Notes under the pieces: model-generated
What the model saw: the letters and a program-made list of their open reading frames with translations, nothing else
Database searches by the model: none
Told to the model about the DNA's origin: nothing
Program-made: the position numbers and the translations under genes
In this document: piece after piece, positions 55,218-62,155 of the stretch
Position numbering within the stretch: the stretch's first letter is position 1
How the letters are laid out: each line of letters begins with the position of its first letter
IMG/VR virus record: IMGVR_UViG_3300042260_000337
From: a virus
Lineage: Duplodnaviria; Caudoviricetes
Reading direction: 5' to 3' (one strand)
Length of the DNA stretch: 64,000 nucleotides

Positions 55218-55309
55218 TGGCGGAAGTGGTAGGATTTGAACCCACGGAACGCTCTCACGTTCGTCCGCTTTCAAGGCGGATGCAATCAGCCAGACTCTGC
55301 CACACTTCC
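55218..55309 (-). tRNA. trnS: tRNA-Ser(UGA)
   Basis: GGAAGTG acceptor, CT-TGA-AA loop, long variable arm, GGTTCAAATCC, encoded CCA. Confidence 0.95.
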
Positions 55310-55765
55310 GTTATTCTTATTCTTGGCTTTATAGGTAGGCAATTGACTATCGCAATTACTACACACAAACCTCAAATTTTCTAACCTATTATCATTATTT
55401 ATCCCATTTATATGATCTAGGATAAGTGGCATTGGCTTTCCATTCCATAGTGGACCAATGCCACAACAATCACACATATAAGGAATCATTTTTTGATCAA
55501 TAATTCTTTTTTTCAGTCTATGCCTTGCATACGTAGATTTTTCTACAAATACGTCTTCGTCGCATCGGCGTATGGATTGTTGATAGTCAGTTAGTTCTAT
55601 ATTCTTTCCCTTGTTCCAAGGGATATTGCCTTTTTTTACCCCTGCATTTGGGCTTCTCACTGCCTTGACACGATCTGGATTATCTTGGCAGTGTTTTTCG
55701 TGTCTTGCGTTTGCACCAATGTTACTTGTTTTTCTGGAACAATATCTACAAATATAAATATTCAT
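55286..55765 (-). CDS. HNH homing endonuclease
   Basis: N-terminal CxxC...HxxxC Zn finger; LILDHINGINNDNRLENLRFVCSNCD; the stop lies inside tRNA-Ser. Confidence 0.9.
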   Translation of the reverse strand: MNIYICRYCSRKTSNIGANARHEKHCQDNPDRVKAVRSPNAGVKKGNIPWNKGKNIELTDYQQSIRRCDEDVFVEKSTYARHRLKKRIIDQKMIPYMCDCCGIGPLWNGKPMPLILDHINGINNDNRLENLRFVCSNCDSQLPTYKAKNKNNGSVAESG

Positions 55766-55790
55766 ACTGGAAATCTCCCTTTGAATTTCT

Positions 55791-55838
55791 AGAGTAGATG
55801 GGAACGGCAATTCCGCGATCTACACTATTATTTATCAA
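55791..55838 (-). promoter_or_regulatory. Late promoter plus 5' hairpin of HNH gene
   Basis: TTGATAAATAATAGT, then GTAGAT...GGAA-TTGCCG-TTCC...ATCTAC stem before RBS GGGAG. Confidence 0.5.
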
Positions 55839-57425: not shown

Positions 57426-57500
57426 TGGTGGAGAATAGGGGGTTCGAACCCCTGATTCAAGAGTGCAAATCTTGCGTGATCCCGATTTCACCAATTCCCC
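57426..57500 (-). tRNA. trnA: tRNA-Ala(UGC)
   Basis: TT-TGC-AC loop, G3:U70 identity pair, CCA. Confidence 0.93.
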
Positions 57501-57933
57501 ATTTATTTTTTACCAACTCTGCTATTGTCGGTATAACCTCGTTTTTCCATTTACTGTGAACCATTTCATGATGATTTGGACACAATGGTATTAGATTTGT
57601 TGGATTGTTATTTTCGTGATTTTCATCTATGTGATGAATAGACACTATTTTATCAAATCCACATATAGCACATTCTTGCTTCCAGTGATTGAATGCGATA
57701 GTTCTGTAACTCACCGCGTTGTCAACCCACCAAGTTTTACGATTGTTCGCGCAACTGCGAGAACAAAAACGTGCATTTTTATATGCTTTTGTCTTTTCTC
57801 TACCATTCCAAATATATGAGTTGTTACAGCATTCACATATTTTTATGTGGTCTATAATGGGACCAAAGCGTTTATCGTTTTTAGCTTCTTGTAAAGCCTT
57901 GTATTGTTCAGTATGATATTTTCCGTTGTTCAT
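57457..57933 (-). CDS. HNH homing endonuclease
   Basis: CECC...FCSRSC; CAICG, SIHHIDENHENNNPTNLIPLCPNHH; start refined to 57933; the stop lies inside tRNA-Ala. Confidence 0.9.
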   Translation of the reverse strand: MNNGKYHTEQYKALQEAKNDKRFGPIIDHIKICECCNNSYIWNGREKTKAYKNARFCSRSCANNRKTWWVDNAVSYRTIAFNHWKQECAICGFDKIVSIHHIDENHENNNPTNLIPLCPNHHEMVHSKWKNEVIPTIAELVKNKWGIGEIGITQDLHS

Positions 57934-57983
57934 ACTATTATTTATCAAAAAAGCGATATTCAATCGCTCTTTCCTCTATATTT

Positions 57984-60966: not shown

Positions 60967-60999
60967 AATATGAATGAGTGTTTACCCTATCGTTGCTCG

Positions 61000-61249
61000 G
61001 TATTCATTATGGTAAGTAATGAAATCCCAAGCTATTGTCGGAAGCGTTTGACCTCCACGGTTCATTTGGATACCACCTCGCATTACTTCGCGGTGTTACT
61101 GCCACACTCAGAGGATACATTGATTTCAAGTCCTATACGACCACAATAGAGGCTCTTGCGAGTAGTCTACCGTCTAACCATATAGTGTTCTGCGCGTCTT
61201 TCCAATCCAACCAAGATAAACCCCGTTGGCGGTAGGAACTCAATGTATC
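61000..61249 (-). ncRNA. Candidate structured RNA between GOLLD-like RNA and tRNA(CUA)
   Basis: 10-bp helix GATACATTGA/TCAATGTATC (61249-61240 with 61123-61114) enclosing a CTC-GCAA-GAG hairpin; no convincing ORF. Confidence 0.4.
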
Positions 61250-61275
61250 GTCAAAATGTGATTTCATTTTGTCAA

Positions 61276-62120
61276 GGCTGAGATTATACCTTGAGGTGAG
61301 TGCCTTCGGTCATTACCCAATCCCTTGCGAGGATGGTTCTACCTTTATCCACAAGAGTCGTTTCCGATCATCTTGTATCACTCAATGCGGCCTTTGTTAG
61401 AGAGTGGCATTTCTCTCGTCGCATACTGCTATTCATCCTTCCATCTTCCGCCAGCCTTGCGGGCTGTTCAAGGTCGCTAAACCCTTACGTCTTCTGTCCG
61501 AATAATCACGTCCACCTTGCGAGTTTCAGTGAACCATATTCTCTTGCGAGTATGGTATTACGCATCTTTCACAGTATACCGAGGTAGTCTTTCGCTTTTG
61601 TTTCAATAATAGGAGTTGAACCTACAATCGTTCTCTTAGAAGGAGACTGCATTACCATTATGCAATATTGCGAACCTATTTCGATGTGCTACCTCAGTTG
61701 CACCATACCTTGTTAGATACAGTATACAACACACCGACTGTCTTTTGCCTTGCGGGCTACTCAACGTCTTTTCAAGTATCCGGGGCCTAACCCTTCCACT
61801 CTCAAGATGCTACTACGCCTTTCCTTGCAGGGTCAGACAGTGTAGCTACCTGTTAACCTTCAGTATTCGTTAGTTTGGCTGAAAACTGTTCGGACGCCAA
61901 TCCTCTTACCACTCACCGACTGGCTCTGTGGCTATCCTTTCAGACAGTTCTCCTAACTTACTACCTACCGCCTCTCTACAGACGGGACTTGCTTTCGGTT
62001 TAATCCGAGTCAAGTCTGGTTCAGGCTTGTATAGATGGACCATCACTGGCGCAAGTTTATAGGAAACCTTGCTTTGGGCGTATTACTACGCTTACCCTTA
62101 TGGACGCTATACCGCCCAAT
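61276..62120 (-). ncRNA. Large ornate ncRNA, GOLLD-like, with embedded tRNA-like domain
   Basis: About 845 nt with no plausible coding, own promoter, five C-GCAA-G tetraloops, many helices, GAGUAGCCCGCAAGGCAAAAGAC and a 3' UAAUCUCAGCC; tRNA-array context. Confidence 0.7.
61601..61672 (-). tRNA. tRNA-Arg(UCU)-like domain embedded in large ncRNA (defective acceptor end, no CCA)
   Basis: GCAT/ATGC D stem, CT-TCT-AA loop, GTAGG-TTCAACT-CCTAT T arm; top two acceptor pairs mismatched. Confidence 0.6.
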
Positions 62121-62126
62121 CTCTAC

Positions 62127-62155
62127 ATCCTAACTCAATTCCGAAGAAGAGTCAA
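62127..62155 (-). promoter_or_regulatory. Sigma70-like promoter of the large ncRNA
   Basis: TTGACT, 17-nt spacer, TAGGAT, with an upstream A-tract. Confidence 0.7.

Follow-up and report, generated by a model that had tools for sequence, protein, structure and literature searches.

GOLLD RNA is said to have been described by Weinberg et al. in 2009. The env-38 GOLLD was solved by Kretsch et al. as a 14-mer cage (PMC12286853), and the cryo-EM cage of the Streptococcus agalactiae GOLLD is a 12-mer (PMC12286853, PMC12990946). In the env-38 cage the linker is directed into the interior, and binding of GOLLD to the ribosome in pull-downs was cited second-hand by the same authors (PMC12286853).

Inserts that resemble tRNAs have been found in the linkers of other members. 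A 2026 review pointed to a Mycolicibacterium GOLLD whose J13/15 contains a tRNA-Phe, and proposed 'inhibited storage' as its role (PMC12990946). Behra et al. described the insert of the Mycobacterium aubagnense GOLLD as a pseudo-tRNA, and their northern shows no released product (PMC6582537). The presence of tRNAs and pseudo-tRNAs in GOLLD linkers is already published, and the locus analyzed here is a further example. An account of a hypervariable triplet or of a systematic acceptor defect was not found in the searchable literature, a body outside of which Weinberg 2009 and Morgado 2020 fall.

The window is a 64,000-nt stretch of DNA from an uncultured phage. It encodes an RNA that shares with the GOLLD family a length of about 850 nt, many GNRA loops, and a linker after the first hairpin of the 3' domain, and no defining feature separates it from the family. 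The env-38 linker is 42 nt long, disordered and without a tRNA (PMC12286853), whereas the linker in the window contains a 73-nt tRNA-shaped module. The inserts of the Mycolicibacterium and M. aubagnense GOLLDs occupy the same position in the RNA as this module, but its anticodon (UCU, for Arg) is a different one.

Cultured relatives of the phage are the roseophages Phaeobacter phage MD18 and DSS3_MAL1 (MT270409, MN602268), which passed the GOLLD model with 170 and 161 bits. Both have, at the same position as the window, a module annotated as tRNA-Arg with the anticodon UCU, and in both, as in the window, the top of the acceptor stem is unpaired and the CCA is absent. The roseophage GOLLD RNAs and that of the window are about 66% identical, and the loop contains G33 in the roseophages but U33 in the window. 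Furthermore, a two-piece tmRNA follows the GOLLD of MD18 and DSS3_MAL1, whereas there is none in the window.

Genomic context of the GOLLD locus

The IMG/VR virus record that holds the window is 202.7 kb in length, with a CheckV completeness of 56%. It contains 40 tRNA-type genes, 17 of which are located in the window (ARAGORN for the window). The GOLLD RNA is encoded within this phage tRNA island, beside tRNA genes. Among the ORFs near GOLLD and along the array, the sole names obtained from PHROGs were those of two HNH endonuclease ORFs interspersed in the tRNA array (Table 1). The same association of GOLLD, a tRNA array and HNH endonucleases has been reported for mycobacterial tRNA clusters.

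The tRNA nearest to the 3' end of GOLLD has an amber-reading anticodon. Stop-codon recoding was considered as a cause of the odd tRNAs of this phage and was rejected. Readthrough of TAG adds no ORFs of at least 500 aa; therefore, the phage uses the standard genetic code. Two further unusual genes were observed in the other tRNA cluster of the record, outside the window: a 97-nt 'tRNA-Tyr' with the unusual anticodon AUA and without CCA (G000:C1:52384-52480), and a 'tRNA-Ser' with the unusual anticodon ACU (C1:54231-54320).

An ORF-free spacer of 308 nt (60967-61274, minus strand) lies between the 3' end of GOLLD and the suppressor tRNA. It contains its own C-GCAA-G hairpin at 61155 and has a folding z of -2.3. 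The spacer matched no Rfam family and showed no blastn similarity in related loci. The two-piece tmRNA of the roseophage relatives is found at the equivalent position. This tmRNA is of the permuted, alpha type in MD18, DSS3_MAL1 and DSS3P8 (L001:3714-4129, L002:3546-3962 and L003:3635-4021, respectively). In all three it is located within about 200 nt after GOLLD, with a nucleotidyltransferase gene slightly further on.

Table 1. Features of the GOLLD locus and the adjoining tRNA array (window coordinates)
Feature	Position	Strand	Basis or remark
HNH endonuclease ORF	55286-55810	-	PHROG, E = 1e-28
HNH endonuclease ORF	57457-57963	-	PHROG, E = 2.5e-14
tRNA with CUA (amber-reading) anticodon	60890-60966	-	canonical-looking, 7 acceptor pairs and CCA
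Full-length GOLLD RNA, about 846 nt	61275..62120	-	Rfam and full-length alignment
Conserved 3' domain	61275..61737	-	RF02032, 193.3 bits, model positions 1-416
C-GCAA-G tetraloop hairpin	61324..61329	-	one of five; the rest at 61456, 61516, 61543 and 61749
Closing helix, 3' strand CUACCUC	61581..61587	-	comparative pairing
A-rich conserved segment AAAAGCGAAAGA, from module to closing helix	61588..61599	-	Rfam consensus and low entropy
tRNA-Arg(UCU)-shaped module	61600..61672	-	ARAGORN tRNA-Arg(tct)
Anticodon UCU in canonical 7-nt loop CUUCUAA	61638..61640	-	ARAGORN
Single-stranded flank AUAGGUU, directly 5' of module	61673..61679	-	entropy 0-0.4 bit per column, 56 unique linkers
First hairpin of 3' domain; its 3'-side bulge bears the 5' strand of the closing helix	61681..61737	-	Rfam alignment
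Closing helix, 5' strand GAGGUAG	61689..61695	-	comparative pairing
5' domain (cap domain in the solved cage), outside the Rfam model	61738..62120	-	alignment with relatives
Promoter-like TTGACT-17-TAGGAT	62127..62155	-	9 of 12 consensus matches

Identity, ends and domains of the RNA

An earlier sequence-only reading had proposed a GOLLD-like RNA of about 845 nt at this locus. To identify the family, a cmsearch with Rfam models was performed. The GOLLD model RF02032 matched 61737..61275 on the minus strand with 193.3 bits (gathering score 150, E = 6e-53). The match ran end to end through the model, and a search of the whole record gave the same result. ROOL gave no Rfam match at the gathering threshold, nor at E values up to 1, and no Rfam families other than GOLLD and tRNAs were found between 60500 and 62900. 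One further, weak match in this region resembled YrlA (22.8 bits, E = 0.09) and fell on the suppressor tRNA next to GOLLD. By its match and its layout, the RNA at 62120..61275 on the minus strand is almost certainly a GOLLD.

The Rfam model describes the conserved 3' domain only, and the 5' domain lies outside it. The full extent was therefore taken from a full-length alignment of 10 sequences, namely the window and nine IMG/VR relatives. Conserved sequence extends from about 62118 to 61275, with a sharp limit at either end, so the RNA is about 846 nt long, in good agreement with the earlier estimate. The 5' 383 nt aligned with the nine IMG/VR relatives and with three roseophage GOLLDs, and hairpins of this domain visibly covary, for example a GNRA-capped hairpin near 62090..62075. 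The RNA thus has the layout of a GOLLD, a family of two-domain RNAs about 800 nt long in which a 5' domain with lower conservation precedes the conserved 3' domain. The RNA had also been described as non-coding; neither the 95-aa ORF inside it nor the flanking ORFs belonged to a Pfam family.

All five C-GCAA-G loops noted earlier were found exactly at their positions on the minus strand, and four of them are hairpin loops in the Rfam structure. The motif CGCAAG occurs 31 times on both strands of the 64-kb window, which corresponds to about 0.2 expected per 846 nt of one strand.

The RNA had also been credited with its own promoter. A promoter-like TTGACT-17-TAGGAT element does lie in front of the conserved start of GOLLD, with 7 nt between the end of its -10 box and this start; promoter-like sites in the region were no more numerous than in shuffles, and it is the position of the element that supports it. 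The promoter and terminator scan found no intrinsic terminator 3' of the GOLLD end.

Single-sequence folding was unremarkable, with z values of -1.6 for the whole RNA and -1.7 for the module with its closing helix. The support for structure is therefore comparative.

The linker and its closing helix

The cloverleaf falls in the variable linker of the family, which the Rfam model represents as a long stretch without structure. As in other GOLLDs, this linker follows the first hairpin of the 3' domain and is enclosed by long-range pairing. The sequence-only reading had placed the cloverleaf inside a GAGGUAG/CUACCUC helix. The two strands are perfectly complementary over 7 bp, and the Rfam consensus has the same complementarity. 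Across 24 diverged GOLLDs this closing helix was 97.6% paired, and two-sided changes affected 5 of the 7 pairs. At least 13 versions of the helix sequence were found in a larger second sample, all of them matched by a complementary strand.

The same 24 GOLLDs were used to test the module together with its flanks against 500 shuffles and against slid registers. In this alignment, 90.8% of cells pair compared to 66.5% in the shuffles, and two-sided changes were found in 25 of 28 pairs. None of the 500 shuffles reached the observed values, and none of the slid registers approached the observed pairing. The D, anticodon and T stems were 92-96% paired with compensatory changes, and the top three acceptor pairs were mostly unpaired. 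Because pairing and covariation exceed those of all shuffles and slid registers, the helix and the cloverleaf are, on comparative grounds, real and under selection. With both the RF02032 match and a covarying helix in hand, the result is the opposite of the one (no GOLLD match and no covariation) that had been named as speaking against the GOLLD assignment.

The spacing of the linker is also conserved. The strands of the closing helix are 92-110 nt apart in 69 of the 83 loci of the subfamily, and 14 loci fall outside this range. Between helix and module, the flank AUAGGUU might supply the J13/15 side of the intermolecular J13/15-L20 kissing loop that has been published; a comparison by eye found no convincing complement.

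The tRNA-Arg(UCU)-shaped module

The cloverleaf had been read at 61672-61601. ARAGORN and Rfam both recovered it, the latter with a tRNA score of 46.3 bits at 61601-61672 (cut-off 29). The module keeps its D, anticodon and T arms, the elbow nucleotides, U33 and a purine at position 37. Its T loop is UUCAACU and its D loop is AAUGGUA.

The acceptor end is different, as the sequence-only reading had noticed. Only five of the seven acceptor pairs are formed. ARAGORN left 1:72 and 2:71 unpaired, and by reading they are C.A and G.A mismatches. Position 27:43 is also G.A by reading. There is no CCA, and AAAC comes next. On reading the sequence, no alternative acceptor register was found in the flanks of the module.

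These defects set the module apart within its own genome. The free-standing tRNAs of the record encode CCA in 38 of 39 cases, and nearly all of them have seven acceptor pairs. Among the 40 tRNA-type genes, only the module has both top acceptor pairs unpaired, and only the module and the aberrant 97-nt Tyr(AUA) gene are without an encoded CCA. A canonical tRNA-Arg(UCU) with CCA is present elsewhere in the record (G000:C1:50539-50615) and has the same 7-nt loop, CUUCUAA, as the module. In E. coli tRNA-Arg, A20 and C35 are identity elements for ArgRS, and A20 is a major one. The module contains C35, and its position 20 is U; the three canonical Arg tRNAs of the phage have A at this position, in a GGA context.

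Compared with a functional tRNA-Arg, the module therefore has the cloverleaf and the 7-nt loop, and lacks the 7-pair acceptor stem, the CCA and A20. Because of the acceptor and CCA defects, U20, the canonical tRNA-Arg(UCU) elsewhere in the genome and the family-wide pattern described below, the module is very probably not a working tRNA.

Embedded modules in the GOLLD family

Two pattern scans of IMG/VR yielded about 150 GOLLD loci, in which ARAGORN recognized 64 unique linker modules. For comparison, 198 unique free-standing tRNAs were collected from the first 84 of the scanned loci. A full 7-pair acceptor stem was present in 2 of the 64 embedded modules and in 170 of the 198 free-standing tRNAs. 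CCA was encoded in 3/64 and 170/198, respectively. Anticodon loops of 6 or 8 nt, which were counted for the embedded modules, occurred in 10 of the 64. Furthermore, embedded modules with Ser, Leu or Tyr anticodons were all 71-77 nt in length and without a long variable arm, whereas the free-standing Ser tRNAs of the same loci were 86-94 nt. The earlier view that the domain cannot be cut out like a normal tRNA is thus well supported by comparison (acceptor defects in 62/64 and CCA defects in 61/64), short of proof.

These counts bear on the possibility that the module is a stored precursor. On this account, a genuine tRNA-Arg(UCU) is held in the cage until it is needed; RNase P and RNase Z then cut it free, and a CCA-adding enzyme supplies the missing end. 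Several observations are compatible with it: the Rfam tRNA score lies above the cut-off, the anticodon and T loops are canonical, CCA is encoded in a few embedded modules, a nucleotidyltransferase is close downstream in the relatives, and storage was proposed in the review (PMC12990946). However, the window module has two open pairs at the acceptor top, U20 and no CCA in a genome where almost all other tRNAs encode one, and it would be redundant with the canonical tRNA-Arg(UCU) of the same genome. Across the family, the acceptor stems are incomplete in nearly all modules, and anticodons of class II tRNAs are found in modules with a class I body. The single reported northern found no released product (PMC6582537). 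We regard a stored precursor as improbable.

Two loci of the same subfamily in IMG/VR showed a different arrangement. In L115:7609-7721 and L101:4759-4871, the linker is a circularly permuted tRNA, which runs from the T arm through the acceptor 3' strand with ACCA, a short loop, the acceptor 5' strand and the D arm to the anticodon arm. The acceptor stem has 7/7 pairs in these permuted tRNAs. Their wiring is opposite to that of the window module and resembles two-piece tmRNA or YrlA-type tRNA mimics. Given these two permuted tRNAs and the three modules with CCA, the acceptor end matters in some lineages.

Variability of the anticodon triplet

The triplet varied much more than the rest of the module. 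In 33 pairs of modules, the anticodons were different although identity outside the anticodon loop was 90% or higher, reaching 98% in some pairs. Differences per site in the close pairs were 0.55 for the triplet, 0.05 for the anticodon stem and 0.13 for the T loop. Another alignment was built from 56 unique linkers of full size, with no ARAGORN filter applied; its entropy was about 0.4 bit at U33 and 1.2-1.6 bit at positions 34-36. The nearest relatives of the window sequence also differ in their loops: L118 is 82% identical and has the same D arm and a CUU loop, and L096 has the acceptor, D and T arms of the window module with an 8-nt loop. The embedded anticodon was also found on a nearby free-standing tRNA in 5 of 22 loci, most loci being short fragments. 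From these alignments, the retention of the loop architecture while the triplet turns over could be diversifying selection or a mere lack of constraint.

At position 33, G replaces U in the roseophage group and in L009 (L001:3098-3173, L002:3084-3159, L055 and L009), with the loops CGUCUAA and CGUUUAA. U33 was present in 193 of 196 free-standing phage tRNAs of the same loci.

The most conserved parts of the module are the T loop, the T stem and the GG of the D loop, with an entropy of 0-0.2 bit, and the T loop was UUCRANY in 21 of 22 modules. This distribution would be expected if only the L-shaped body mattered, with an irrelevant and drifting anticodon triplet. The elbow could then be a handle or processing signal that recruits RNase P, RNase Z or another elbow binder to nick GOLLD in the linker, a docking site for the ribosome, or a rigid strut in the cage. 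The near-saturation of the triplet and the existence of 6- and 8-nt loops point in the same direction. However, U33 is conserved and the seven-nt loops have a purine at position 37 in 52 of 54 cases, although the triplet between these positions is variable. The anticodon stem is maintained by compensatory changes, which indicates that the anticodon arm is selected, beyond the elbow alone. As for nicking, the acceptor top and CCA are the usual determinants of RNase P, and the degenerate acceptor top and missing CCA remove them. Docking to the ribosome agrees with the GOLLD pull-down (cited in PMC12286853). Taken together, a role of the elbow without the triplet is rather unlikely.

Some GOLLD linkers are short and contain no module; therefore, the module is dispensable for the GOLLD family. 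The shorter linkers look like deletion remnants, and recognizable remnants were present, for example, in L006, L105 and DSS3P8. Such linkers, together with the degenerate acceptor end, the variable anticodon and some odd loop sizes, are what a captured tRNA gene would leave behind as a functionless pseudogene heading for deletion. This reading of the modules as decaying relics is already disfavoured by the comparative data, and we consider it very improbable. Compensatory changes occur in all four stems of sequences that are about 65-80% identical overall, the great majority of the subfamily linkers keep their length between the helix strands, and the T loop, the D-loop GG and U33 are conserved.

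Discussion

The best overall explanation of the locus, and on balance a probable one, is a GOLLD cage with a tethered tRNA mimic. GOLLD would be transcribed leftward from its own promoter inside the tRNA island. Cages are known for the env-38 and S. agalactiae GOLLDs only, and by homology the RNA of the window would form one too, made of RNA alone and with its variable linker directed inward. In the subfamily, the covarying 7-bp helix encloses this linker as a slot of constant size, about 100 nt. The slot holds a tRNA-shaped module whose L-shape and U-turn anticodon loop are maintained by selection. Since the acceptor end is degenerate and CCA is missing, the module would stay covalently tethered and outside translation.

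The sequence-only reading had suggested that the tRNA domain may be a displayed decoy or a docking module. The env-38 linker points into the cage interior (PMC12286853); therefore, the domain of the window is probably enclosed instead.

In the cage, the modules would act as a multivalent tRNA mimic, each chain contributing one copy and a cage about a dozen. Their target may be a factor that recognizes both the elbow and the anticodon loop of tRNAs, for instance an anticodon nuclease of the host or some other enzyme acting on this loop, and the fast-changing triplet would set the identity of the mimicked tRNA. A host anticodon nuclease is the obvious candidate because phages carry tRNAs against such enzymes. 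The tRNA-Lys of phage T5 reportedly acts against PARIS, as an example of a phage tRNA that counters a tRNA-targeting defence. The module of the window is similar to such anti-defence tRNAs in that it is tRNA-shaped and phage-encoded and has the anticodon loop as its relevant feature, and the bait hypothesis is based on this likeness. However, the anti-defence tRNAs are free and chargeable and replace cleaved host tRNAs, whereas the module is tethered and judged unchargeable. The binding of an anticodon-loop-reading factor by a cage-tethered mimic is thus a tentative proposal, drawn by analogy; of the roles considered it is the likeliest, at less than even odds. Against it, a factor would have to reach an enclosed bait through pores or upon opening of the cage. 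A hypervariable triplet also fits a loop of no importance, and some anticodon loops have 6 or 8 nt (10 of 64 modules), while five of the 54 seven-nt loops lack U33. The dispensability of the module for the family counts against a single simple story.

In a more specific form of the bait proposal, the bait would be programmable. The body, the U-turn and the loop size would be held constant, and the rapid turnover of the triplet would be driven by selection. The cage of each lineage would then present the anticodon loop that is attacked by the tRNA-directed nuclease, or read by another anticodon reader, of its host. We consider the programmable form unlikely as it stands.

To the known GOLLD family the window adds a gene of well-defined limits, for which a promoter, the two ends and the layout of the linker can be given. 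The annotated 'tRNA-Arg' at 61600..61672 should be excluded from the decoding tRNAs of the phage. The locus itself is ordinary, and the pattern at the family level is the more useful outcome. As a rule of the subfamily, the linker contains a module (69/83 loci) that is systematically unfit as a tRNA and has a hypervariable triplet beside a conserved U33. This pattern turns the statement that GOLLD sometimes contains tRNAs into a testable hypothesis on the contents of the cage, for which the cultured phages MD18 and DSS3_MAL1 offer a test system. If the programmable bait were true, GOLLD would receive its first known function since 2009, a role in the contest between phages and hosts over tRNAs.
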